Source of the DNA: Escherichia coli
GTDB lineage: Bacteria; Pseudomonadota; Gammaproteobacteria; Enterobacterales; Enterobacteriaceae
DNA length: 64,000 nt
Direction: 5' to 3' (one strand)
Assembly (NCBI RefSeq): GCF_011045215.1
Contig: NZ_CP049201.1
Part shown: positions 1 to 14,565 of the stretch, in pieces
How the letters are laid out: every line of letters starts with the position of its first letter
Numbering within the stretch: position 1 is the first letter of the stretch
Program-made: the position numbers and the translations under genes
The notes under the pieces: generated by a model
What the model was told of the DNA's origin: nothing
The model's database searches: none
Seen by the model: only the letters and a program-made list of their open reading frames with translations

Positions 1-269
1 CCATCGAGAAAGCACTCGGTATTGACCAGGTACGCTTGATCACCACCGGCGGCGACGCCTTTGAAGCCGAACGTGAGCAGTGGAACGACGCCAATAACGT
101 TCTGACCATCCGCCCCGGTGTGGTGATTGGTTACGAGCGCAACGTCTGGACTAACGAGAAATACGACAAAGCCGGCATCACCGTGCTGCCCATCCCGGGG
201 GACGAATTGGGACGAGGCCGCGGCGGCGCACGCTGCATGAGCTGTCCGCTTGAACGCGACGGAATTTAA
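1..269 (+). CDS. arcA: Arginine deiminase, C-terminal fragment (5' end lies outside the window)
   Basis: Frame continues open from the window edge; C-terminus ...[17 protein letters not shown] carries the conserved catalytic Cys motif of arginine deiminases; followed by carbamate kinase and OTC genes. Confidence 0.8.
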
Positions 270-279
270 AGGAGCCATC

Positions 280-1191
280 ATGGAACGAAAACCCACTTTG
301 GTTGTGGCGTTGGGCGGCAACGCATTATTGAAGCGCGGCGAACCACTGGAAGCAGAAATCCAGCGCCAGAACATTGAGTTGGCCGCCCGTACCATCGCCG
401 GGCTCACGGTGAATTGGCGCGTGGTGTTGGTTCACGGCAACGGTCCACAGATCGGGCTGCTGGCGCTGCAGAACAGCGCCTACGACAAAGTAACCCCTTA
501 TCCACTGGACGTTCTTGGCGCCGAAAGCCAGGGGATGATCGGCTACATGCTCCAGCAGGCGCTGAAAAACAGCCTGCCACAGCGTGAGGTGAGCGTCCTG
601 CTTACTCAGGTGGAAGTGGACGCTACTGACCCGGCGTTCAGCAACCCGACCAAATATATCGGACCGGTGTACAACGAAGACCTGGCAAAAACACTGGCAG
701 CAGAAAAAGGTTGGGGGTTTAAGGCCGACGGCAGCTACTTCCGTCGCGTGGTGCCATCTCCACAGCCGAAACGCATTGTCGAGAGCGATGCTATTACGGC
801 ACTGATCCAGCGCGACCATCTTGTTATCTGCAACGGCGGCGGTGGTGTGCCAGTTGTGGAAAAGGCTAACGGCTATCGCGGAATTGAGGCGGTGATCGAC
901 AAAGACCTCTCTGCTGCCCTGCTGGCATACCAGATAGGGGCCGACGCACTACTGATTCTCACTGATGCCGACGCGGTTTACCTCGATTGGGGCAAACCGA
1001 CCCAGCGTCCGCTAGCGCAGGTGACGCCAGAACTGCTCAGAGGCATGCAGTTTGACACCGGATCGATGGGGCCGAAAGTGGCCGCCTGCTGCAAGTTTGT
1101 TGAAGCTTGCAACGGTATTGCCGGGATCGGCGCTCTGGTCGACGGGGCTGAGATTTTGGCGGGCAAGAAAGGCACATTGATTCGTAACTGA
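280..1191 (+). CDS. arcC: Carbamate kinase
   Basis: 303 aa from ATG at 280 with AGGAG 7 nt upstream; N-terminus MERKPTLVVALGGNALL typical of the carbamate kinase (amino-acid kinase) family; operon context. Confidence 0.88.
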   Translation: MERKPTLVVALGGNALLKRGEPLEAEIQRQNIELAARTIAGLTVNWRVVLVHGNGPQIGLLALQNSAYDKVTPYPLDVLGAESQGMIGYMLQQALKNSLPQREVSVLLTQVEVDATDPAFSNPTKYIGPVYNEDLAKTLAAEKGWGFKADGSYFRRVVPSPQPKRIVESDAITALIQRDHLVICNGGGGVPVVEKANGYRGIEAVIDKDLSAALLAYQIGADALLILTDADAVYLDWGKPTQRPLAQVTPELLRGMQFDTGSMGPKVAACCKFVEACNGIAGIGALVDGAEILAGKKGTLIRN

Positions 1192-1275
1192 ATCCCCCTT
1201 CACCTAACCCTCTCCTCAAAGGGGAGATGGCAGAGTGAGGGCATCAGACAGTTAAAATTTAAAAAGGATTTCCTA

Positions 1276-2280
1276 ATGACCATCAATTTGAAAAAACGCA
1301 ACTTCCTTAAACTGCTGGACTACACCCCGGCAGAGATCCAGTACCTGATCGATCTCGCGATCAAACTGAAAGCGGCCAAAAAAGCCGGACGAGAAAAACA
1401 GACCTTGGTTGGCAAAAACATTGCCCTGATTTTTGAAAAAACCTCCACCCGTACCCGCTGTGCTTTCGAAGTGGCTGCGTTCGACCAGGGGGCGCAGGTG
1501 ACCTACCTCGGCCCAGGCGGATCGCAAATCGGCCATAAAGAGTCAATGAAAGACACCGCCCGTGTGCTGGGCCGTATGTATGACGGCATCGAATACCGTG
1601 GTTACGGTCAGGCCATCGTTGAGGAGTTGGGCAAATACGCGGGCGTACCGGTGTGGAACGGTCTGACCGACGAATTTCACCCAACCCAAATCCTCGCAGA
1701 TTTGATGACCATGCTGGAACATTCCCCGGGCAAAAAACTGTCGGAACTGAGCTTTGCCTACCTTGGCGACGCACGCAACAACATGGGTAACTCCCTGATG
1801 GTGGGGGCTGCCAAAATGGGGATGGATATCCGTCTTGTAGCCCCAAAATCCTTCTGGCCGGATGTGGTGCTTGTTGAACAGTGCCGTTCCATCGCGGAAG
1901 AGACGGGCGCACGTATCACCCTGACCGATGACGTGGAAGAAGGCGTGTGGGGAACGGATTTCCTCTACACCGATGTTTGGGTCTCCATGGGTGAACCGAA
2001 AGAGGCGTGGACCGAACGCGTCAGCCTGATGAAGCCTTATCAAATCAACGCTGACGTGATGAACGCCACCGGCAACCCGAACGTCAAGTTCATGCACTGC
2101 CTGCCAGCCTTCCACAATGAGCACACCAAAGTGGGCCGAGAAATTGAGATGGCATACGGCCTGAAGGGACTGGAGGTGACGGAAGAGGTCTTCGAATCCC
2201 CTAACTCTATCGTCTTTGATGAAGCAGAAAACCGCATGCATACCATTAAAGCGGTCATGGTGGCGACACTCGGCGACTAA
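1276..2280 (+). CDS. arcB: Ornithine carbamoyltransferase, catabolic type
   Basis: 334 aa; STRTR carbamoyl-phosphate binding motif, HCLP motif; strong similarity to E. coli ArgI recalled from memory; lies inside the ADI operon. Confidence 0.92.
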
Positions 2281-2327
2281 TCACCACCCGGTGCGTCGTA
2301 GGGTGCACCGGGTCTCAGGAGAACATC

Positions 2328-3731
2328 ATGGGTAAGTTCAAATTTCCCTCCGCATATACCATTCTCTTTTTTCTGATTGCCATCGTTGCCGTCCTGACGT
2401 GGATCATTCCAGCCGGGCAGTATCACATGGCAATGAACGAAGCTCTCGGCAAGGAGGTTCCTGTTGCCGGCACCTATGCACACGTAGAGGCCAATCCGCA
2501 GGGACTGATTTCAGTGCTGATGGCCCCAATTGCCGGGTTGTATGATCCAGACTCCGGTCAGGCTAGGGCGATAGACGTTGCGCTGTTTATTCTGATCATC
2601 GGAGGATTCCTCGGGATCGTCACCAAAACCGGGGCCATTGACGCCGGAATCGAGCGCGTCACCACCCGACTACGTGGTCGCGAAGAGTGGATGATCCCGA
2701 TCCTTATGGCGCTGTTTGCTGCTGGCGGTACAATTTACGGCATGGCCGAAGAATCCCTGCCGTTTTATACCCTGCTGGTGCCGGTGATGTTGGCAGCACG
2801 CTTCGACCCTGTGGTAGCCGCCTCCACCGTGCTGCTCGGCGCCGGGATCGGCACGCTCGGTTCCACCATTAACCCTTTCGCGACGGTGATCGCCGCCAAT
2901 GCAGCCGGGATCCCCTTCACCAACGGTATCACCTTGCGTGTGGTGGTGCTTGTCATCGGCTGGATAATCTGCGTGACATGGGTGATGCGCTATGCCCGGA
3001 AAGTTCGCAAGGAGCCGTCTCTCTCCATTATTGCGGATAAACAAGAGGAGAACCTCGCCCACTTCCTCGGCAATAAAAGCGAACAGGCTCTGGAGTTCAC
3101 CCCGGTACGCAAAATTATTCTGGTGATTTTCGCCCTTACCTTCGCGGTCATGATCTACGGCGTGGCGGTGCTGGGTTGGTGGATGGCGGAGATCTCAACG
3201 GTATTTCTGGCCAGCGCAATTATCATCGGCCTGATCGCCCGCATGAGCGAAGAGGAACTGACCTCTACCTTTATCAACGGCGCGCGAGATTTGCTGGGCG
3301 TTGCACTGATTATCGGTATCGCGCGCGGTATCGTAGTGATCATGGATAAAGGTATGATTACCCATACTATTTTGCACTACGCCGAGGGAATGGTTACTGG
3401 ATTATCGACAGTAGCATTCATCAACGTGATGTATTGGCTGGAAGTGGTGCTGTCGTTTCTTGTGCCTTCTTCGTCCGGTCTGGCCGTTCTGACGATGCCG
3501 ATCATGGCACCTCTTGCCGACTTCGCTAACGTCAACCGCGACCTGGTAGTTACGGCTTACCAGTCTGCGTCCGGTATCGTTAACCTGATCACTCCCACCT
3601 CTGCCGTTGTGATGGGCGGACTGGCTATCGCCCACGTGCCTTACGTGCGATATCTGAAATGGGTTGCGCCGCTGCTTGGGATATTAACAGTGGTAATTAT
3701 GGTGGCATTAAGTCTGGGGGCATTGTTGTAA
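2328..3731 (+). CDS. YfcC-family polytopic membrane transporter (putative arginine/ornithine exchanger of the ADI operon)
   Basis: 467 aa, multiple hydrophobic helices, Gly/Ala-rich segments; positioned between OTC and the ArgR-like regulator. Confidence 0.75.
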   Translation: MGKFKFPSAYTILFFLIAIVAVLTWIIPAGQYHMAMNEALGKEVPVAGTYAHVEANPQGLISVLMAPIAGLYDPDSGQARAIDVALFILIIGGFLGIVTKTGAIDAGIERVTTRLRGREEWMIPILMALFAAGGTIYGMAEESLPFYTLLVPVMLAARFDPVVAASTVLLGAGIGTLGSTINPFATVIAANAAGIPFTNGITLRVVVLVIGWIICVTWVMRYARKVRKEPSLSIIADKQEENLAHFLGNKSEQALEFTPVRKIILVIFALTFAVMIYGVAVLGWWMAEISTVFLASAIIIGLIARMSEEELTSTFINGARDLLGVALIIGIARGIVVIMDKGMITHTILHYAEGMVTGLSTVAFINVMYWLEVVLSFLVPSSSGLAVLTMPIMAPLADFANVNRDLVVTAYQSASGIVNLITPTSAVVMGGLAIAHVPYVRYLKWVAPLLGILTVVIMVALSLGALL

Positions 3732-3811
3732 TTTGCCGGATGGCGCTGCCCCTATCCGGTCTACGGAATGGTGTGGTGTCACCGGTTATTTCGAGAACTG
3801 AATATAGGATT

Positions 3812-4291
3812 ATGATGGATTACGAAGATTTCTCTCCCAAAGAGCAACTACAGCTAACGGTCTGCCAACGTCTGATTGCAGAAAAGAGCTATTTTTCCCA
3901 AGAGGAGCTCCGCCGCGACTTACAGGAGCGTGGTTTTGAGACAATCAGCCAGTCCACCGTTTCTCGTCTGCTCAAGTTGTTAGGTGTCATAAAAATTCGA
4001 AATGCCAAAGGGCTAAAAGTCTATTCGCAGAATCCACAGTTGCGTCCGGCTCCTGATGCCGCGCGCACTGTGTCCGAAATGGTGGTGAGCGTTGAGCACA
4101 ATAGAGAATTTATCCTTATCCATACCGTTGCTGGATATGGCCGCGCAGTGGCACGTGTCCTTGATTATCACCAGTTGCCAGAAATTTTAGGCGTGGTGGC
4201 CGGAAGCAGTATCGTCTGGGTCGCTCCTCGGATGGTGAAGCGTGTCGCTCTGGTGCATAAGCAAATTAATTATTTACTAAGAACGTATTAA
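3812..4291 (+). CDS. ArgR-family arginine repressor-like regulator
   Basis: About 159 aa from the ATG at 3812 (the ORF-track start at 3659 is probably too far upstream); resembles ArgR in the N-terminal winged-helix (...SQSTVSRLLKLLGVIKIRNAKG...) and C-terminal oligomerisation region. Confidence 0.78.
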   Translation: MMDYEDFSPKEQLQLTVCQRLIAEKSYFSQEELRRDLQERGFETISQSTVSRLLKLLGVIKIRNAKGLKVYSQNPQLRPAPDAARTVSEMVVSVEHNREFILIHTVAGYGRAVARVLDYHQLPEILGVVAGSSIVWVAPRMVKRVALVHKQINYLLRTY

Positions 4292-4484
4292 TATTCACAA
4301 ATGCCCGCTTGTATTGACTAATACATACATTAAATCGCTTCATTCGCAAAGCGAGTTTCCTATAATGCCTGATAATGTGCCAGGAGGGAGCATAGTCAAG
4401 CGTGTACGATATAACGTCTCACCGCGTCTGAAATCAGACACTGGCTTGGTGTTTTATTCCCGTTGCTTAATCTATTCCTTGGGT

Positions 4485-4508
4485 CCCTCATTTGAGGGGC
4501 TTTTTTTG
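4485..4508 (+). terminator. Intrinsic terminator (GC stem ccctc/gaggg plus T7 run)
   Basis: Hairpin 4485-4498 followed by tttttttg; ends either the arc operon read-through or a short transcript starting near 4370. Confidence 0.5.
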
Positions 4509-4528
4509 CTCGGCATCAGGAGATAAAC

Positions 4529-4678
4529 ATGAATCCGTTTTATCAAAAAATAAATGCCCCTAGCCGCGAAGTGCTGGAGCTCGTTCTAAAAATCGCAGCA
4601 AAAATTGAAAACCATTCCTCAACCATCGCGGCGTTCGTATGCGCCGCCAATGATGCGCCCGAAAACGCGTCAATATGA
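4529..4678 (+). CDS. Small hypothetical ORF (49 aa) whose 3' end lies in a 63-bp repeat
   Basis: ATG at 4529 preceded by AGGAGA; translation MNPFYQKINAPSREVLELVLKIAAKIENHSSTIAAFVCAANDAPENASI; the last 14 codons recur at 4955-5017. Confidence 0.25.
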   Translation: MNPFYQKINAPSREVLELVLKIAAKIENHSSTIAAFVCAANDAPENASI

Positions 4679-5043
4679 GTTCGCCGGAATATTACTCTGC
4701 TGTCGGGAGTTGAACGCCTGACGACAGGAAATGAGCCAGGCCAGCCACCACGCGGGCTGACAGCGAATCAGAACCTGAGTCAGCCCGGAGCCATTCCCGG
4801 GGCTGCACTTCATCACCTGCCACCAGTACCCGTGTCAGTACTTCGCGACCTGACGCAATTATCCGACTCAGTCCTTCAGAACCCGCCTCCGATACCAGCC
4901 TGGCGCTCGCCCCTGCGCAAGCAAAATAAATCAACCATTGTCAGACTGCGATCATTCGTATGCACCGCCGATGACGCGCCCGAAAACGCGTCAATATGAG
5001 TTCGCCGGAATATTACTCAATATGAGTTCGCCGGAATATTACG
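4634..5043. repeat. Direct repeats: 63-bp unit at 4634-4696 and 4955-5017; 26-bp subunit (caatatgagttcgccggaatattac) in three copies at 4671-4696, 4992-5017, 5018-5043
   Basis: Read directly from the sequence; lies between the ADI operon and the cdiI terminator. Confidence 0.8.
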
Positions 5044-5065
5044 CCTAGCTGGGGGTTTTCTGTGC

Positions 5066-5096
5066 ACAAAAAAATCCCGGCATAATGGCCGGGATT
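5066..5096 (-). terminator. Intrinsic terminator of the cdi operon (minus strand)
   Basis: Palindrome atcccggc...gccgggat followed on the minus strand by a T7 run, just downstream of the cdiI stop. Confidence 0.6.
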
Positions 5097-5110
5097 TGCG
5101 AGCTTTCCCA

Positions 5111-5485
5111 CTATTTCTTGATTCCTAAACGGAACATATCAGTTGGGAATAAAGGTTGTATTATCACTTCATCATTAAAAATGAATAATTTGGGCGATAA
5201 AGCTGTTACGTCATAGATATTTTCAGCGATTAATCTTAGATTTGACCTAAAAACTGGAATACTTGCATCATCTACAAAGACAAACATGTCATCGTTTTTT
5301 ACAGAGTTTGCACACAATAGCTCATCAAAACTCTCATAATCAGAATGCCAGATCTCTGACCAAGTAACACTTCCTTTCGCGAGAGGGTACTTATTTAAAA
5401 TGCCCAGAGCCTCCTGCTGAGCCAGCCCCTCTACTATATTAAAATCAGCACTCAGTGCTTCCCGACACTCATCAAATAAAGTCAT
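5111..5485 (-). CDS. cdiI: CdiI immunity protein (cognate to the CdiA-CT encoded at 5494-6246)
   Basis: 124-aa acidic protein starting 5 nt after the cdiA stop codon; position and size typical of cdiI. Confidence 0.75.
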   Translation of the reverse strand: MTLFDECREALSADFNIVEGLAQQEALGILNKYPLAKGSVTWSEIWHSDYESFDELLCANSVKNDDMFVFVDDASIPVFRSNLRLIAENIYDVTALSPKLFIFNDEVIIQPLFPTDMFRLGIKK

Positions 5486-5490
5486 TTGCT

Positions 5491-8400
5491 CTACCTGTTT
5501 AGCTGTTTCAATATTGTTTCAAAAGACTTTTCATTGCCTTCAAAAGGTATGACTTGCTTCACCGCTTTTCCAGGGCCTTTACCCTGCGAGTAATCCCATA
5601 TATTGATGTGTGTGCCTTTTTCAGGATCATAATCAACACGCCAACCAACTTTTCCGTCGCTGGATTGCCGCCCTATGACTTTCCCATTACCAGCGCTGAC
5701 TTCCAAACGTCCGATAACTGGCTTAGAGTCCGCTCCTAAATTACCTACAAGATCCAATGCCTTGTTTCGAGCAGTTTCCCAGTTTTTCTCTGGCTTGAGG
5801 ATTTGTTCAATTTTAGGCTGGGAATTCCCTTTAACCTTACTAATTCCCCCAAATGCTGACGCCGCAGCGCTCGCGACTATTCCCGCCTGAACTTCATCCA
5901 AACCGTATTCTTCTTGGAGTGCTTCCGAGACTTTGTTGGTCGCGACAACCCCTTCAGCCTGCATTTGCTGCGCAAAAGTCGCCGTCAGATCGTAGACCAT
6001 TTTGATCGGGATATCTTCACCCAGAGCACGATCTATTGCCTGCTTCACCGCCAGACTGTCAGTCAGTACATCACCGTATTTCTGCTGGCAGGTTGCCGGG
6101 CTGGCTGCACAGTCACTGATCAGTTGCTTTTGCTGTGCCGTACTCAACTCTTCGTACTTTTTGATAATACCGCCGCAGTCACCGCCTTTCGCCTGACAGG
6201 ACTTCATTTCAGCGGACCAAGCATCTATCTGCTTACTGCTCAGATAGTTATTCTCAACAGTTGTCTTACCTGACTGTGCGCCGGCTACCGCTGAAGCCCC
6301 CGAGTCTCCCACCAGACCACCGGCCAGGCCGGCAGCAACCGTTGCCAGTGTCGAGACCGTCTGCTTCTCTGTCTCGCTCAGTTCACTCACCGGCTTACCG
6401 TACATCTGTGTGGCTATCATTCCCACCACCTCGCCGGTGGCTGCACCTGCAGCACCGGCAAGGGCATTCTTACCCTGTGCCAGAGACAGGGCGGCATTCA
6501 CTACTGCATGAGCTGCCACACGCCCCGCACCGTCCGGGGTGGTCTGTTTGATAATTTCAGCAATATACGGCGCTGCACCACCTGCCAGGGCTGCACTCAG
6601 ATTACCGCCGGCCAGTCCCTGTACCGCTGCCGTTGCGGCCTGTATCGCCTGCTGGTATTTGCCTCCCGTTCCAAAACCGGAGGCTGCCATACCGTTATTG
6701 TAGGCCCGCTGTGCCACATCCTGTTCCGTGTACGGTTTTCCTGCTGCCTCAAGCTCTGCGCGGGCCTGATTCAGTGCTGCCGGGTCCCGCTTCGCTTTCT
6801 CACCGGCTATCTGTCCTTCCGTTCTGGCAATATCTGCCACCTGGTTACCAATCTCACCAATGAGTTGCGCCTGCTGCAACCGCTGCTGCTCTTTTTCCCT
6901 GTCAAAGATGGGGGACAGCGTCTGGTTTGCATGCGCAACGTCACGGTTCAGGTCTGCCACATCCTGTTTCTGGCTCTGTGTATCCCGGATAGTGATATTC
7001 CCGGCAGACACAGCCGACTGCGTGGTACTGTCCGCATGGCCTTCATGATTTGCACCGACCAGCAGATTGTTTGCCATGTTCCCCAGGAAATTTCCGGCAA
7101 CACTGCCACCGGTACTGAGCCCTGCACTCTGATGTTCCGTTTTAAAGTCAGCCCGGTTTTCAGTGTCACTGAAGCCCAGTGTGCCGGTATCCAGCCTGTT
7201 TTTATCTGCCGTTGCCGTGGACGCAATCACCGCACCGTTCAGTTGCGTATGCTGTCCGGTGGTGACATCAAACCCGCCCCTGCCGGCAAAAATCCCCGTC
7301 TGCTCCTGTACACTGTCGTAGTTACTGTGCATTTTATCCCGGCTGAGGTTCACACTCGCCGAACCGCTCATGGACCCGAAAGTGAAGCTGCCTCCGGCGC
7401 TGGCATTCTGCTGCTTACTGTCATAACGGTCACTGTCCTGCTCACTGGTCAGTGTCAGATGACGACCGGCATCCACTTTCACCGTTTCACCGCCAGCCTG
7501 CGCGCCGGTAAGCGTGGTGTCCCGCCCGCTGATAATGGTCAGCCGGTTTCCCGCATCCACCGTGGTTTCTGTATGGGTGGTACCGTTGCCTTTTTCACTG
7601 CCCTTACCCTGGTTTGCGCTGGCTGACAGACTGAAACCAGGCCCTCCGGGCCCCACACCGATACCGACACCCACGCTGCCACCACTGGATGTGTTCTTTC
7701 CTTCCAGCTTTGACGTGTTTTCTGCTGATACCAGATTCACGTCACGGTTTGCCTGCAGCAGAACGTTGTTCCCGGCCTTTATCTGACCGCCCTGTATCGT
7801 CAGGTCACCATCCACGCCCTTCACGCCGGAGCCGGTGGCCTGAATACTGAGGTTATTACCTGCGGTCAGTGTACTGCCCTTCGCCACCGTCTGCTCTGAC
7901 TGCTGTTCTGATTTCGAAGACTGGCTGCCGTAAGAGAGGCTGATACCCACGGTATTGTTATTCTCTTTCTGGTTGCCCTGTGCTTCTGCCAGTCGTCCGG
8001 CCTGCACGGCCTGAGCCCCCGAGAGCGCGGCCTTCACCCCCTGCAGGGCTTCAAGCCGGCTGTTTCCGGCAGATTTCGCCGCCTGTACGGTCTCCACCGT
8101 CGTGTTCAGGGCGCTGCCCGCTGTGCCGGACAGGGCAAGCGTCAGACCGGAGGTTTTCTGCTCCACCGTATGTGTCTGCACATGCCGGTCAGTGGCGGCG
8201 GTAATGCTGACCTCCTTACCACTGAGTGCCATGTCCCTGCCGGCAATCAGGTCAGAGCCGTTGACGGTCAACCGGTTACCTGCCTGAAGGGAAACATCAC
8301 CGTGAACACTCCCCACCGTGCTGCCTTTCTGCGTGGTGTCTGTTGCGGTGTCCGTGACCTTCAGACTCTGGCTGCCCACGCTGAATCCCACACCTCCGGA

Positions 8401-11400
8401 GCTCATCAGTCCGGATTTTTTCTCCTGTTTCAGGTGTGTTTCACGGTTGCTTTCTGTCAGCGTTCCGATACTCAGGTTATTTCCGGCAGCCAGGGAGACA
8501 CGGTTATCCCCGGCCACACTGCTGCCCGTGACGTTCAGATTATGTCCGGCACCGATACTGACCGTATCCCCGTTCAGTTCACTGCCCGTCATGGTCCGGC
8601 GGTCAGTGACATCATGCGTGGTAGTGGTGGTTTTCGATAACATCCCGCTGTTGCCGGTCACTTTATGGTATTCATCCAGCGAGCGGGTATTCTGTGCACC
8701 GGTCAGCGTCACGTCATGACCCGCCATCAGGGCCAGGCCTTTCTGAGCTGACAGCGATGCCGCCTGTGACGTCATATCCCGTCCGGCGGTCAGCGTGACA
8801 TCACCGTTACCGGCAAGTGTGCTGCCCGTATTCTGTGTGACGCCCTGCGACAGACGATTATTTTTATCCCAGGTAATATTGTCCTGCGCGGATGTGGTCA
8901 CCGTGGAAAGCGTCATATCCCTGCCGGCACTGAGTTGTGTCAGGCTGTCCTTACCCTGATTCACCACCGTTGCCGCCGTCAGATTCATATCCCGTCCGGC
9001 CTGCAGCACCAGTCTTCCCTGGTCGTTCTGCACATACACGCCGGCCACACTGTCGATACTGGTACGTTCAAAATGGTTCTGCCCGGCGTCGCGCTGTGCC
9101 GTACGGGTGGTGGTGGTCAGACTGATATCCCGTCCGGCCATCGCCAGCAGGCTGTCCGTGGCCTGCAGCAGCCCGCCGGTACTGTTAATATCCGTCCGGG
9201 CCGTCAGGCTGACATTTGCTCCCTGAATGGTGCCGGCCTGGTTGTGAATGTTTTCTGCACTGAGCTGCACGGCCTGCTTCCCGGCCAGTTTACCGCTGTT
9301 AAACAGGTCACCATCCAGCTTCATCACCATGTCCCTGCCGGCAATCAGCGCACCGGCACTGTTCACATCACCGGGTTTTACACGGGCATACACCTGAGGT
9401 ACCTGAACCGTCTGCGTGCTGCCGTCCGGCAGTGTCACCGTGGTGTTAACCAGCCAGACAATATCACCGGTCAGTAACGCCATCTGCTCAGCAGTCAGCG
9501 CCACACCTGGTGTCAGGTTGTATTGCTTACCAAATGCAATACCCGCATCCATTAACGCCTTAAACTGCTCTTCATCATTACTGTATCCGTCCAGGTACCG
9601 TTGCCCGGTCAGAGCGACAACCTGCTCACGAATCAGACGCTGTTCGTAAAAACCATCCCCCAGGCGTTTGAGCATGTTATCCCCGTTCTGAGAAAACGCC
9701 TTCTGCATGTAATCACTGCCCAGCCACGTCTTCTGGTTCGTAAAACGCGGGTCCGTTTCAACCAGATATGGCACATTCACTGCCGGATTTGTTTTAAACA
9801 GGCTGCTGTCCGGCAGACGGGTATCCGGCCCGGCAACATGGATACTGCCCTGAGGTGCGCTGACTTCAAACTGCTGCCCCGGCAACAGAATGACCGGTTC
9901 ACCGGCTGACACCACCGGGCGAAGCGGTATCCGGTCAGTAACGGCTACTGTCGCATCCACATTTCCGGTCAGTCCTGTCTGTACATCCGTTCCCTGTGGC
10001 TTCAGGGGAGAAAGCGTGACCTGGCTGCCCTGAACCTGTCCGTGGCTGGTGAGCTCTCCCGGCTTCAGCGTGATGGTCTGAATGACGGGGGGCGGCTCGT
10101 AAGGGGAAATTCTTTCCCCCTGCCTGTCATTTTTATTTTTTCTTTTTATCCGGTAATAATATGTGGATGTCCCTTTATCAGTAACATGGCGCTCTCCGCT
10201 GACACTGACGTTTTCCACATCACCGGCCTGCATATCCAGCAGACCACCTGCAACCACCTGGCTCTTGTCATTAAGCAGTTTGTCTGCCACAACCGTCATG
10301 CCGGCACCGGACAGTATTTTCCCCGGGTCGGAGTCTTTTACCCGGGTTTCCTCCACGGTACGGGTGTATTCATATTTTGTGAACCGGTCGTTGTTATGTC
10401 CGGTATCATCCGGCGTGTTCAGGTTCAGCAGTCCATCAGAGGAGTTGTTATCAATGAACACCCCCTCATCTTTTGCATTCCAGCGGACATCTGACCCGCG
10501 ATGCTGATACTCAGTCACCTTTTCCGTGGAGACCACCACGCGCTCCGTGGTGAAATGGTCATTGACGTTATTGATTTGCCCGGCACTCAGTGTCAGGGAA
10601 CCGGCGGCTTCAATCGTGGCACTGTGATTATTCAGTACACCGGCTTTCCCCGTGGCGGCGCCATTCGCATCCAGCATGCCACCGATATGCATATCACCTG
10701 CACTGTAAATCAGGCTGTGCGTCCGGTTATTCAGGGTCTGTACCCCCAGGTCCACACGCTCACGTCCGGCCAGCGTCGCCGCCACGCCATTTTCATCCAG
10801 ATTATTAAATGTGGCAGCGCTGACACCAACAGCATCGCCGTAGATTCGCCCGGTACCGGAATTCGTCAGGGTGTTCGCCTGAAGATGCGTATATTTCCCG
10901 TCAATCAGCCCACGGTTCAGCAGTGTGTCCGTCACGTTAAGCCAGGTCTGCCCGGCACTGATTTCACCTTTCTCTGTGTTTTCAAGGCGGATGCTGTTCA
11001 GGTCAAGCCGGCTGCCTGCCAGCAGGCTGCCGGTATTAGAGACATCGCCATTAACGGAAAGCGTAAGGTTTCCGTTTGCAATGGTCTGACCACTGTTACT
11101 GAACGCTGTGTTACTTTTCAGCGTTATATCGCCCGGCGAAAGCAGTTTCCCGTCACCACCAAGCTGACCGACATCCACAGAGACTGACTGCCCGGCCTTA
11201 ACCACGCCGTCACGGTTCGAAAACGCCAGCTGACGGCCACTGACAGACAATGTCGCGCCGGAAGAGAGCACGCCATCATTATTACTGAGCGTCCTGTCTG
11301 CCATAACCGTAAGCGCCCTGTCTGCCAGAATACTGCCCTCCTGGTTATCAAGGTCCTGCGTCGTGATGTGTATTGTCTGCGCTTCCAGCCCCTGGCCGGT

Positions 11401-14400
11401 ATTCTGCGTGTGGCGATTGATAAACTGCAGGGCGTTCAGCGTAATGGCAGAACCACTGCGAATCAGACCAGAGACGTTGTCCACAACGCCCCGTACACTG
11501 TCGAACAGAATGTCGCCCACAGACTGTATCTGTCCGTGGCTGTTCTGCAGGCCTCCCGTATGCAGACGGAGTTCACCTTCACTGACCAGCCGGCCACCCT
11601 CACGGTTATCCAGCGAGGTGGTGCTCAGGTCAGCTGTCGTTTTCGCCCCCACGGTCCCGCCCCGGTTATCCATTGCTCCGGTACTGACAGTCAGTTCCTG
11701 CAGGCTGTTCAGCGTACCCCCTCTGTTATCCAGCGTCCGGCCTGCGCTATTAATGCTGATGCCTTTCCCCTGAATAAGACCGGACTGATTGTTCAGCGCC
11801 AGACTGTTCCGGCCGGGCAGACCGGTCGCCACAATCTGACCATTCGCCACCACCTGACCGGATGTATTGTTAACCACGCCTGCAGTCAGGGACAGCGCAT
11901 CTCCCGACAAAAGCACACCGGCAGTGCTGTCCAGTGTGCCGGCATTCAGCGTCATCGGGCCCTGACTGATAACCCCGCCCCGGTCACCACTGTTACGGTT
12001 GCTCAGTGTGTCAGCACGGAGATTCAGTGTGGCACCGCTCTGTATCAGACCACCTGCATCATTGCTGATATCCGTCGAGGAAAGGGTCAGTGACTGCTGT
12101 GCCACCAGTCTGCCGCCCTGATTATCAGAGCGGGTGACATCCAGCCTGCTGTTACCGTTGCTGACCACCGTCCCCTGCTGATTTTCCAGCACATTCAGGT
12201 GCGCATTCAGGTCCCCGCCGGCGGCAAGCGTCCCTTCCTGATTACTGACATCGCCACCACTCAGCAACATATCCGTCCCGGCCTTCAGTGCGCCTTTCTG
12301 GTTCATCAGCGTACCTGACGATATCTGTAATGACGCCTGACTCCCCAGCACGCCCTGACGGTTATCGAGCGTTCCGGCGTTCAGGGTCATATCCTTCTGA
12401 CCCGCCATAAATCCCTGCTGGTTATTCAGCATACCGGCCCGTACTGTCAGGGTACCGGCGCTGCTGATACCACCCCGTGTTTTCGTGTTCCGGTTACTGA
12501 GAACCCCGTCCTGTACATCCAGCGTCATGTCACTGCCGGACTGAATCAGACCATCATCAGAGACCAGTTCGCTGCCTGACACAGACAGCGTTTTCTGTGA
12601 AAGCAGTCTGCCGGACGTATTATCCAGCGCACCATCCAGCGTCACGGACAGCCCGTCAGACACCACCGTACCCTGGTGGTTATTCAGACTCCCTGCCGAA
12701 ATATCCAGCCTGCCGGCGGACTCCATTCGTCCCTCAGTATTGCTGACAGCCTGCTGTGTTTTTATCCTGCCCGTTCCGGCAGCAGCTGAAATCAGTCCGT
12801 TGTCGTTATTCAGTGCCTGTGTATTAATCAGGATGTCACGGCTGGCAATCAGACTTCCCTGCTGGTTATCCACGGCGCCGGTTGTCCTCACCTGCAGACT
12901 ACCTGACTGCGCCGCCTGCACTTTCCCCCTGCGATTATCAAGGCTCAGTGCATCCAGGCGCACCGCGCCATTTGCCGCAAGCAGCCCTTCCCGGTTATCC
13001 ACACCTCCCGGCAGGTTCAGTGAAAAATCCCCTGTTCCCGTCTGAATCAGTTTACCCCTGTGGTTTGACAGGCTCTGTGCTGATATCTGCAGTGTGTCGG
13101 CATTTATCGTGCCGTCATTATTGCTGAACTGCCCGGCAGTCCGGGCGGAAAGCGTACCGGCACTCAGTTGCGCATTTTGCGTGAACAGATTTCCGCTGCC
13201 TGCATCCAGCTCAGTATGTTGTCCCTGTATCCGGCTGTTGCTTAAATCCAGCCCCTGCCCCTTCAGTTGCATGTCCCCACCGGACAGAACCTGTCCGTGT
13301 GCCGCCAGTTCGCCGGTGGTACTGACAGTCAGGTTGCCCGCTGCCGCCAGACGTCCGTCATCTTTCACCCCGGCGGCCAGCAGACTCCGCTCACCGCCGG
13401 TCAGACGCGCTGTCTGAATCCGGGTGTTGCGACGTGATGCCACAGAGCCTGTATGGGTGAATACACCATCACTCTGTATCTGCGTATCCTGCCCCGCATA
13501 AACAGAACCACTGTTATGCAGCTCCCGGGTTGTCACCAGATGCACATCCGTTTTCGCACTGATACTGCCACTGTTTTCAATTCGTCCGTCAGCCGTCAGG
13601 GTAACCGCCCCTGCCTGCGCACCAATATGACCGGCGTTACGAACACCCACCCCCGTTTCCGTACCGACAAGGCGAATTTTTCCGGCATACATTCCACCAA
13701 GGCTGGACACATCCAGCGCCACCTGTGGCTGCGAAGAGGCATCAGCGGCTTTTTTCTCAGTCTGCCCGTGTGCAATATCCACATTGTTACGTCCGGTGGT
13801 CACTTTCAGGTCCTGCGCCCAGATACCCGCATTAATCTTCACAGACCGGGCAATGATATCGGTATAATCCGTGCGCGAGGCATCCATCCCTTTGCCCGTA
13901 ATCTGAATCTCACCACGTTCAACACTGAATCCGGTCAGACTGCCGTTTTTCATCTGAGGCTGCCCCGTGGTCAGCGTGGCCCGGTTCGCATTAATAAAAC
14001 CGCACCCGTCGCAACTGATGCCGGCCGGGTTCGCAATCACCACCTGCGCCTTTTTCCCGGCAACCTCAACAAAACCGTTCAACTGGCTGGGATTGCGACT
14101 GTTCACTTCATTAAGAATGATTCGGGCCTCTCCCTTCGCCAGCCACGGGTTACCGGCAACCATGCCGCCCAGTTGGGTCTGCACATTTTTATGCGAGTTA
14201 TTCAGAATGACACCCTGATGACTGACATCAAACTGACTGTAAGTATTGTGCGATACCCCACCTGCAGAAGGTGTCTGGATATTGACCTGAGGAATGCCGC
14301 TGGCTGTCTGCGTAATCGTGGGCTGCTGATGCCCCGGTGCGCCATGGTCTGCGACAATGCCTGCAGCACTGACAGAATGCACCATCCCCGAGGCCAGCCA

Positions 14401-14565
14401 CAGGGAGAATGCAAGCGATGTGACACGGCAGATACGTTGCCTGCGTGGATATCCTGTACGGGAGGAGGGTGATGCACCGGCGCGACCGGAACGGGCAATA
14501 TCTGCCACCACCATCAGCATTCCCCGGGCTTTGTTAAAAATAATGCGGTAACAATTTTTGTTCAT
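5491..14565 (-). CDS. cdiA: CdiA contact-dependent inhibition exoprotein (TpsA/filamentous-haemagglutinin family), 3024 aa
   Basis: N-terminal extended signal peptide MNKNCYRIIFNKARGMLMVVADIA; TPS domain; long Gly/Thr/Asn/Ser-rich FHA-type repeats; VENN motif at codons 6247-6258; 251-aa variable C-terminal domain. Confidence 0.95.
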   Translation of the reverse strand: MNKNCYRIIFNKARGMLMVVADIARSGRAGASPSSRTGYPRRQRICRVTSLAFSLWLASGMVHSVSAAGIVADHGAPGHQQPTITQTASGIPQVNIQTPSAGGVSHNTYSQFDVSHQGVILNNSHKNVQTQLGGMVAGNPWLAKGEARIILNEVNSRNPSQLNGFVEVAGKKAQVVIANPAGISCDGCGFINANRATLTTGQPQMKNGSLTGFSVERGEIQITGKGMDASRTDYTDIIARSVKINAGIWAQDLKVTTGRNNVDIAHGQTEKKAADASSQPQVALDVSSLGGMYAGKIRLVGTETGVGVRNAGHIGAQAGAVTLTADGRIENSGSISAKTDVHLVTTRELHNSGSVYAGQDTQIQSDGVFTHTGSVASRRNTRIQTARLTGGERSLLAAGVKDDGRLAAAGNLTVSTTGELAAHGQVLSGGDMQLKGQGLDLSNSRIQGQHTELDAGSGNLFTQNAQLSAGTLSARTAGQFSNNDGTINADTLQISAQSLSNHRGKLIQTGTGDFSLNLPGGVDNREGLLAANGAVRLDALSLDNRRGKVQAAQSGSLQVRTTGAVDNQQGSLIASRDILINTQALNNDNGLISAAAGTGRIKTQQAVSNTEGRMESAGRLDISAGSLNNHQGTVVSDGLSVTLDGALDNTSGRLLSQKTLSVSGSELVSDDGLIQSGSDMTLDVQDGVLSNRNTKTRGGISSAGTLTVRAGMLNNQQGFMAGQKDMTLNAGTLDNRQGVLGSQASLQISSGTLMNQKGALKAGTDMLLSGGDVSNQEGTLAAGGDLNAHLNVLENQQGTVVSNGNSRLDVTRSDNQGGRLVAQQSLTLSSTDISNDAGGLIQSGATLNLRADTLSNRNSGDRGGVISQGPMTLNAGTLDSTAGVLLSGDALSLTAGVVNNTSGQVVANGQIVATGLPGRNSLALNNQSGLIQGKGISINSAGRTLDNRGGTLNSLQELTVSTGAMDNRGGTVGAKTTADLSTTSLDNREGGRLVSEGELRLHTGGLQNSHGQIQSVGDILFDSVRGVVDNVSGLIRSGSAITLNALQFINRHTQNTGQGLEAQTIHITTQDLDNQEGSILADRALTVMADRTLSNNDGVLSSGATLSVSGRQLAFSNRDGVVKAGQSVSVDVGQLGGDGKLLSPGDITLKSNTAFSNSGQTIANGNLTLSVNGDVSNTGSLLAGSRLDLNSIRLENTEKGEISAGQTWLNVTDTLLNRGLIDGKYTHLQANTLTNSGTGRIYGDAVGVSAATFNNLDENGVAATLAGRERVDLGVQTLNNRTHSLIYSAGDMHIGGMLDANGAATGKAGVLNNHSATIEAAGSLTLSAGQINNVNDHFTTERVVVSTEKVTEYQHRGSDVRWNAKDEGVFIDNNSSDGLLNLNTPDDTGHNNDRFTKYEYTRTVEETRVKDSDPGKILSGAGMTVVADKLLNDKSQVVAGGLLDMQAGDVENVSVSGERHVTDKGTSTYYYRIKRKNKNDRQGERISPYEPPPVIQTITLKPGELTSHGQVQGSQVTLSPLKPQGTDVQTGLTGNVDATVAVTDRIPLRPVVSAGEPVILLPGQQFEVSAPQGSIHVAGPDTRLPDSSLFKTNPAVNVPYLVETDPRFTNQKTWLGSDYMQKAFSQNGDNMLKRLGDGFYEQRLIREQVVALTGQRYLDGYSNDEEQFKALMDAGIAFGKQYNLTPGVALTAEQMALLTGDIVWLVNTTVTLPDGSTQTVQVPQVYARVKPGDVNSAGALIAGRDMVMKLDGDLFNSGKLAGKQAVQLSAENIHNQAGTIQGANVSLTARTDINSTGGLLQATDSLLAMAGRDISLTTTTRTAQRDAGQNHFERTSIDSVAGVYVQNDQGRLVLQAGRDMNLTAATVVNQGKDSLTQLSAGRDMTLSTVTTSAQDNITWDKNNRLSQGVTQNTGSTLAGNGDVTLTAGRDMTSQAASLSAQKGLALMAGHDVTLTGAQNTRSLDEYHKVTGNSGMLSKTTTTTHDVTDRRTMTGSELNGDTVSIGAGHNLNVTGSSVAGDNRVSLAAGNNLSIGTLTESNRETHLKQEKKSGLMSSGGVGFSVGSQSLKVTDTATDTTQKGSTVGSVHGDVSLQAGNRLTVNGSDLIAGRDMALSGKEVSITAATDRHVQTHTVEQKTSGLTLALSGTAGSALNTTVETVQAAKSAGNSRLEALQGVKAALSGAQAVQAGRLAEAQGNQKENNNTVGISLSYGSQSSKSEQQSEQTVAKGSTLTAGNNLSIQATGSGVKGVDGDLTIQGGQIKAGNNVLLQANRDVNLVSAENTSKLEGKNTSSGGSVGVGIGVGPGGPGFSLSASANQGKGSEKGNGTTHTETTVDAGNRLTIISGRDTTLTGAQAGGETVKVDAGRHLTLTSEQDSDRYDSKQQNASAGGSFTFGSMSGSASVNLSRDKMHSNYDSVQEQTGIFAGRGGFDVTTGQHTQLNGAVIASTATADKNRLDTGTLGFSDTENRADFKTEHQSAGLSTGGSVAGNFLGNMANNLLVGANHEGHADSTTQSAVSAGNITIRDTQSQKQDVADLNRDVAHANQTLSPIFDREKEQQRLQQAQLIGEIGNQVADIARTEGQIAGEKAKRDPAALNQARAELEAAGKPYTEQDVAQRAYNNGMAASGFGTGGKYQQAIQAATAAVQGLAGGNLSAALAGGAAPYIAEIIKQTTPDGAGRVAAHAVVNAALSLAQGKNALAGAAGAATGEVVGMIATQMYGKPVSELSETEKQTVSTLATVAAGLAGGLVGDSGASAVAGAQSGKTTVENNYLSSKQIDAWSAEMKSCQAKGGDCGGIIKKYEELSTAQQKQLISDCAASPATCQQKYGDVLTDSLAVKQAIDRALGEDIPIKMVYDLTATFAQQMQAEGVVATNKVSEALQEEYGLDEVQAGIVASAAASAFGGISKVKGNSQPKIEQILKPEKNWETARNKALDLVGNLGADSKPVIGRLEVSAGNGKVIGRQSSDGKVGWRVDYDPEKGTHINIWDYSQGKGPGKAVKQVIPFEGNEKSFETILKQLNR
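5494..6258 (-). other. VENN motif plus CdiA-CT polymorphic toxin domain (251 aa)
   Basis: gttgagaataac (VENN) encoded on the minus strand at 6247-6258; Cys-rich segment (SCQAKGGDCGG...DCAASPATCQQ) right after VENN; distinct C-terminal domain ...GWRVDYDPEKGTHINIWDYSQGKG... Confidence 0.8.

Follow-up and report, generated by a model that had tools for sequence, protein, structure and literature searches.

What stands between the ArgR-like gene and the adjoining island of this Escherichia coli genome, where a promoter-like site is followed shortly by a strong terminator? In a preliminary description, made from the sequence of the 64,000-nt stretch analysed here (the window), the two sites were paired into a candidate short transcript, to be read either as a small regulatory RNA or simply as 3' UTR plus terminator of the arc operon. 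The pair is a second, worn copy of the pyrBI leader and attenuator, not a new small RNA gene. Window positions 4339-4633 very probably (roughly 85%) form a relic of an arc operon-pyrBI junction from an Enterobacter-like enterobacterium. The features referred to below are as follows.

3812-4291, plus strand: ArgR-like regulator, last gene of the arc module arcA-arcC-argF-yfcC-argR (PGAP annotation in the island copy; Pfam Arg_repressor domains).
4339-4344, plus strand: -35 hexamer TTCATT, homologue by alignment of the conserved TTGATC of the pyrBI promoter.
4361-4366, plus strand: -10 hexamer TATAAT, the same in 13 of 13 aligned sequences.
4374-4379, plus strand: initially transcribed region AATGTG, homologue of the invariant AATTTG of the orthologues.
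4383-4387, plus strand: conserved Shine-Dalgarno sequence GGAGG of the leader ORF (alignment).
4392-4526, plus strand: pyrL-like leader ORF of 44 codons and TAA, reading through the terminator, with ATA at the place of the canonical ATG.
4424-4441, plus strand: homologue of the leader hairpin preceding the U-rich tract, with one pair broken (C4425/A4440; the orthologues have G at the second position).
4451-4459, plus strand: U-rich tract GTTTTATTC, for which the orthologues have GTTTTTCTTC; in the window it is substituted (including a private C to T change at 4457) and shorter by 1 nt.
4481-4507, plus strand: attenuator, consisting of an intrinsic terminator hairpin (core 4483-4500) and T7.
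4518-4522, plus strand: conserved Shine-Dalgarno sequence AGGAG of pyrB (alignment).
4529-4633, plus strand: 5' stub of pyrB, with a 12-nt deletion and a frameshifting insertion; homology is gone at about 4633.
4634-4697, no strand assigned: 64-nt junction sequence in place of the remainder of pyrB; a second copy lies at 4955-5018 and a partial one at 4981-5044.

PGAP annotation was taken from an island copy with 99.9% identity to window 1-4291 and no difference in the 4339-4508 region.

The promoter and the terminator were both present as first described: TTCATT and TATAAT are separated by a 16-nt spacer, and a G+C-rich hairpin at 4481-4502 runs into seven T at 4501-4507 (sequence read directly). 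The terminator was called by a consensus scan (9 pairs, 5 of them GC) and, folded alone, reaches -13.6 kcal/mol (z = -2.66; 3 of 200 shuffles fold as well). The promoter was missed by the same scan, its -35 hexamer matching at only 3 of 6 positions, and consensus alone does not lift it above chance, with 3 promoter-like sites found in the scanned region and 4.3 expected. What shows both elements to be real is homology, not consensus matching: -10 hexamer and attenuator each match, column for column, those of pyrBI in E. coli, Klebsiella, Enterobacter, Citrobacter, and Salmonella. Their pairing into a short transcription unit stands on the same ground, since it is homologous to the attenuated leader transcript unit of native pyrBI. 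The T-run of the terminator ends about 20 nt before the ATG of the pyrB stub at 4529, as in pyrBI attenuators. Between the stop codon of the argR-like gene (4291) and the terminator, the consensus scan gave a single hairpin, a weak one at 4335-4354. A promoter-like site was also seen on the opposite strand at 4399-4372 (TTGACT, 16 nt, CATTAT), pointing back into the argR-like gene; as a minus-strand promoter it was rejected, being one of the chance-level sites counted above.

By BLAST, window 4292-4530 matched 5,424 of 5,426 complete E. coli genomes, and in 51 of these genomes the copy is at least 99% identical. In the other genomes, essentially every complete one, the match is to the resident pyrL, with about 76% nucleotide identity over window 4361-4527. 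The pyrL-pyrB region of Enterobacter is closer (about 80% identity over window 4292-4624, E = 4e-86). A duplicate of the host's own pyrL was therefore rejected, the more so as the native argR-like gene is 75% identical to that of the window. The product of ORF 4392-4526 is identical to PyrL at 17 of 44 positions (E = 9e-9), and Pfam PF08052 (PyrBI_leader) recognizes it with 30.4 bits over a cut-off of 25, covering profile positions 2-44 of 44; the cut-off of the NCBIfam equivalog NF007587 (pyr operon leader peptide) was missed (25.5 and 61 bits, respectively). In EC11, the genome inspected in full, RefSeq calls the exact sequence (window 4365-4526) a 'pyrBI operon leader peptide' and the ORF after it a 'hypothetical protein'; the same leader-peptide label lies under the 20 matches listed from the 51 genomes with copies at least 99% identical. 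The element thus belongs to a classic, fully described attenuation system and is already labelled by RefSeq.

The 70-aa ORF 4314-4526 (TTG start) had been set aside as spurious. As such it is indeed no gene, but the stretch 4392-4526, its final 44 codons, is the homologue of pyrL. The annotation has an oddity of its own: the 53-aa 'pyrBI operon leader peptide' of PGAP begins at 4365, with an ATG lying partly in the -10 hexamer, because the codon at which orthologous leaders start has mutated to ATA. The 'hypothetical protein' after it is a pyrB fragment.

An independent small regulatory RNA, acting in trans and co-opted from the old leader transcript, would be bracketed by the promoter-like site and the terminator at a length of about 134 nt, and its sequence is identical across many E. 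coli assemblies. That identity reflects the recent spread of one island rather than selection, however; the -35 hexamer is weakened, and the whole predicted transcript folds no better than shuffles (z = -0.70). Every homologue found is a 5' leader of pyrB, none free-standing, and the segment itself is a pyrL-type leader with attenuator before a pyrB stub. A covariance-model scan against Rfam, which the preliminary description had proposed as a check, gave no match in window 3000-6500 at E values up to 1. This counts little against a small RNA and cannot decide the case, because the genuine E. coli pyrL locus, for which Rfam has no model either, returned sub-threshold chance matches only. On this evidence a separate small RNA gene is very improbable, and the segment is better read as a copy of the pyrBI leader.

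For comparison we used the pyrBI leader and attenuator of E. coli K-12, the system of promoter P2 described by Turnbough and colleagues. Shared with it are TATAAT, a start 8 nt downstream, GGAGG, a 44-codon ORF through the terminator, the U-rich tract, the hairpin and T-run about 20 nt ahead of the pyrB ATG, and AGGAG with the pyrB start. The window copy differs in its ATA for ATG, AATGTG for AATTTG, and TTC for TTG in the -35 hexamer, in its weaker hairpin, and in that pyrB and pyrI are not intact. The closest relatives are the pyrL-pyrB regions of Enterobacter (E. cloacae DSM 26481 and related; loci L005, L007, L043, and L008), with 80% identity over 333 nt including the argR-pyrL spacer. 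There, too, the leader directly follows the argR-like gene, and pyrB begins with MNP, as in the window, and not with MANP; unlike the window copy, these leaders have ATG and AATTTG, encode a 34-aa peptide whose stop codon lies in the terminator loop, and are followed by pyrB and pyrI in intact form.

The frame in the window reaches 44 codons because its T-tract is 1 nt shorter than that of Enterobacter. Leader-peptide length (44 aa in the window, 34 aa in Enterobacter) was considered as a sign of decay and rejected, since both lengths occur in functional orthologues (compared loci: L005, L007, L008, L012, L014, L015, L022, L025, L043, and L002). Peptides of 44 aa, ending beyond the T-run, occur in E. 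coli, C. koseri, and Pseudenterobacter; peptides of 33-34 aa, with TGA in or at the terminator hairpin, in Enterobacter, Kosakonia, Salmonella arizonae, and Klebsiella (annotated as a 105-nt CDS). The two lengths bear on how far the ribosome has to travel to block the hairpin.

Attenuators of the trpL, hisL, and pheL type likewise have a short leader ORF overlapping an intrinsic terminator upstream of a biosynthetic operon. Attenuation of the pyrBI type has no alternative antiterminator hairpin and works by UTP-sensitive pausing and physical occlusion by the ribosome; the leader hairpin of pyrBI acts as a pause hairpin. The window copy is a remnant of this type, unlike the trpL, hisL, and pheL type. 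Its leader hairpin and U-rich tract are both recognizable and both altered (alignment; folding).

The neighbourhood agrees with this identity. A protein scan for the ArgR-like regulator, with one genome taken per species, gave 46 loci from Enterobacter, Lelliottia, Kosakonia, Citrobacter, Salmonella, Trabulsiella, and others. In 45 of these, and also in E. coli LF82, a pyrL-pyrB region lies directly downstream of the argR-like gene; the one exception, at which a pyrL-pyrB match was absent, is locus L020. E. cloacae has a complete pyrB (310 aa) and pyrI (153 aa); both genes are intact in LF82 too, where the native order is argF, yfcC, argR-like, pyrL, pyrB, pyrI, ridA. The arc genes of the window are closest to Enterobacter (86% over 4.3 kb), and it is this, together with the shared synteny, that makes the window copy a foreign, Enterobacter-like junction.

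Gene order is identical to that of the window at the native arc-pyrLBI junction of E. coli phylogroup B2 (e.g., LF82) and of Salmonella. About 593 complete E. coli genomes hold the native argR-like gene, and in these (e.g., LF82) the native arc operon stands directly upstream of a canonical pyrLBI. The native E. coli junction is nevertheless unlike that of the window in that its argR-like gene is only 75% identical and its pyrL canonical and intact, which argues for a foreign copy and against a duplicate of the host locus. For the native arc operon (LF82, locus L061, 1-4626), identity to the mobile module is likewise only 75%. E. coli has, then, two unrelated sources of arginine deiminase genes, the native cluster and the mobile module; the native cluster has been linked to pks-positive lineages in a pangenome study (PMC8545132).

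The state of the copy was assessed in an alignment of 13 sequences, the window and 12 others, with a change counted as private where the window differs from a column in which all 12 agree. The window has 50 such private differences; any other sequence has 0-13. As a control for the distance of the lineage, the argR-like gene was treated in the same way at columns invariant in the same 11 species: the leader and pyrB stub differ at 52 of 240 invariant columns, the argR-like gene at 11 of 282 (Fisher p = 2.8e-10). By segment, the differences amount to 7/28 in the spacer, 5/17 in the promoter, 13/111 in the leader transcript, and 27/84 in the stub, each individually elevated over the argR-like gene. 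Identity of the window to E. cloacae is 84.6% in the leader, 67.5% in the stub, 87.7% in the argR-like gene, and 86% in the arc genes, whereas leaders of functional orthologues at comparable distance are 93-97% identical. Between E. cloacae and Lelliottia the leader (94%) is better conserved than the argR-like gene (86%), an order that the window reverses. The changes hit parts on which the mechanism depends, namely the start codon of the leader, the T-run, the G of the -35 hexamer, the leader hairpin, and the stem of the terminator, and they also hit pyrB itself:

Position 4341, -35 hexamer: TTG in the orthologues; TTC in the window (G to C).
Position 4377, initially transcribed region: AATTTG in the orthologues; AATGTG in the window (T to G, breaking the T-run).
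Position 4394, leader start codon: ATG in the orthologues (12 of 12); ATA in the window (G to A).
Position 4440, leader hairpin: paired in the orthologues; one pair broken in the window.
Position 4484, terminator stem: C in the orthologues; T in the window.
Positions 4501-4507, terminator T-run: 8 or 9 T in the orthologues; one fewer (T7) in the window.
After 4549, pyrB: intact in the orthologues; 12-nt deletion in the window.
Position 4600, pyrB: in frame in the orthologues; +1 insertion (frameshift) in the window.

The terminator hairpin has an energy of -13.6 kcal/mol in the window, -15.9 in E. coli, and -17.8 in E. cloacae. The window copy is most likely a decaying relic. Some of the private changes could instead belong to a functional lineage outside the sample and not to decay after capture: the nearest species sampled is only 86% identical to the window, and the true donor is not among the sampled genomes. 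For most of these changes, the argR-like control argues against such an origin. Copies within E. coli are nearly identical to one another.

At a functional pyrBI start, AATTTG supports UTP-driven reiterative transcription, which requires at least three consecutive T (PMC7039003, PMC6524683, PMC6245113). A ribosome translating pyrL close behind RNA polymerase blocks the attenuator hairpin, according to the passages of PMC4824070 and PMC5021804 that cite Roland et al. 1988. In the native system, the UTP level sets the distance between ribosome and RNA polymerase on pyrL, and with it whether the attenuator hairpin forms; UTP also drives unproductive reiterative transcription on the AATTTG start. 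We propose that an arc-pyrBI junction came into E. coli on the right-hand end of the mobile arc module and that its capture broke pyrB. The relic retains promoter, pyrL leader, and attenuator of pyrBI together with about 35 codons from the start of pyrB, and has nothing left to regulate.

By homology, transcription would start at 4374. The only in-frame ATG for the leader is at 4365, inside the -10 hexamer and upstream of this presumed start, so that the leader would be left untranslated for want of a usable start codon; the element for reiterative transcription is probably lost as well, because AATGTG removes the T-run that it needs. Still intact are the -10 TATAAT, both Shine-Dalgarno sequences, the open leader frame, and a good terminator, which makes some activity likely. 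If the weakened promoter still fires, the terminator would form nearly always, giving a non-functional RNA of about 134 nt, from 4374 to about 4507 (end at about 4505-4508); rare read-through transcripts would enter the dead pyrB stub. That the promoter is active, how long the transcript is, and that the leader goes untranslated are all inferred from the sequence.

The features that remain might also be taken for a still-functional, pyrimidine-responsive attenuator controlling the small ORF 4529-4678, since the -10, the Shine-Dalgarno sequence, the leader frame open through the terminator, and a Shine-Dalgarno sequence with ATG for the next ORF have all been kept. The ATA start and the broken T-run lie, however, at sites invariant in 12 orthologues, and the downstream ORF is a frameshifted pyrB stub without a family match, 49-85 aa long depending on the sequence past the junction; a working attenuator is hardly conceivable here.

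The second proposal of the preliminary description, that the segment is the 3' UTR and terminator of the arc operon, fails as to origin, the element belonging to pyrBI, but an incidental stop of arc read-through is possible. The same terminator would probably halt transcription coming from the arc operon, because only the weak hairpin at 4335-4354 intervenes between the argR-like stop codon and 4481-4507. A stronger form of this proposal holds that the segment is kept mainly for that purpose, the former attenuator ending argR-like read-through and insulating the convergent genes of the contact-dependent inhibition (CDI) locus beyond. The terminator is the best-preserved functional part, and the downstream genes are convergent. 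Yet the hairpin has been weakened rather than maintained, the element is pyrBI by origin, and about 298 IncF plasmid copies of the arc module, ending 36 bp after the argR-like stop codon, do without it. Retention for this role is unlikely. Co-option in a wider sense, with the terminated RNA of about 134 nt or the terminator serving the island, for instance by shielding the convergent CDI toxin and immunity genes from arc transcription, or with a regulatory RNA derived from pyrL, seems distinctly improbable.

The pyrB stub keeps about the first 35 codons, the 12-nt deletion amounting to 4 codons, and its open frame continues to 4678 (ORF 4529-4678, 49 aa). The N-terminus of this ORF resembles PyrB (16 of 30 positions identical); no Pfam or NCBIfam match was obtained for it. 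There is no intact pyrB-pyrI for the element to control, only the frameshifted 5' stub. A 64-nt direct repeat begins exactly where pyrB homology ends; its copies are 95% identical and 321 nt apart, with a partial third. Some 800 complete E. coli genomes contain the stretch 4634-5018, often in several copies; O157:H7 islands and certain plasmids are among its locations. The 64-nt repeat resembles a recombination or junction element, or what remains of a small mobile element. No tRNA or tmRNA gene turned up in a scan of the window, so the island has no tRNA-linked boundary here.

The arc module also occurs on about 298 E. coli IncF plasmids, where it is 99.65% identical and ends 36 bp after the argR-like stop codon, beside IS66 genes (example: locus L004 on IncF plasmid p123, 1758-7036, compared with window 1-4327). 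The pyrL element is missing entirely from these copies, from which it follows that the arc genes do not need it. The chromosomal island copy of the 51 complete genomes is longer than the plasmid copy and presumably the older form. An index of public assemblies lists the exact 53-aa product, as annotated, in 2,653 blocks. All 10 contexts sampled have the same arc genes on its left and a stub ORF of 61-85 aa after it; none has an intact pyrB there.

Sequence in common with the window ends at 4695 in the 10 other contexts compared, and the flanks beyond vary: CDI genes, a group II intron reverse transcriptase, hlyE, and IS1. One further locus, L054, shares the downstream context of the window (97.75% identical to window 4292-5490). 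In the window, a CDI locus is convergent towards the relic (5072-5097, 5111-5485, and 5491-14565, all on the minus strand); it comprises a 3,024-aa CdiA-like ORF and a 124-aa CdiI-like immunity ORF, and its strong terminator has 10 pairs, of which 6 are GC. At L054, Pfam assigns CdiI_ImmP to the immunity gene, and Fil_haemagg_2, Fil_haemagg (faint), and PT-VENN to cdiA.

The biological weight of the finding is little, because the attenuation system is a classic, fully described one and the copy is decaying. For annotation it is a caution: RefSeq names a 53-aa leader peptide that starts inside the -10 of a promoter, and a fragment of pyrB as 'hypothetical protein'. For the history of the arc genes, the pyrL leader and pyrB stub are a molecular fossil of a mobile arc module excised from an Enterobacter-like chromosome at the arc-pyrBI junction, a module that today is found in chromosomal islands of E. 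coli and, among complete genomes, on some 300 IncF plasmids.
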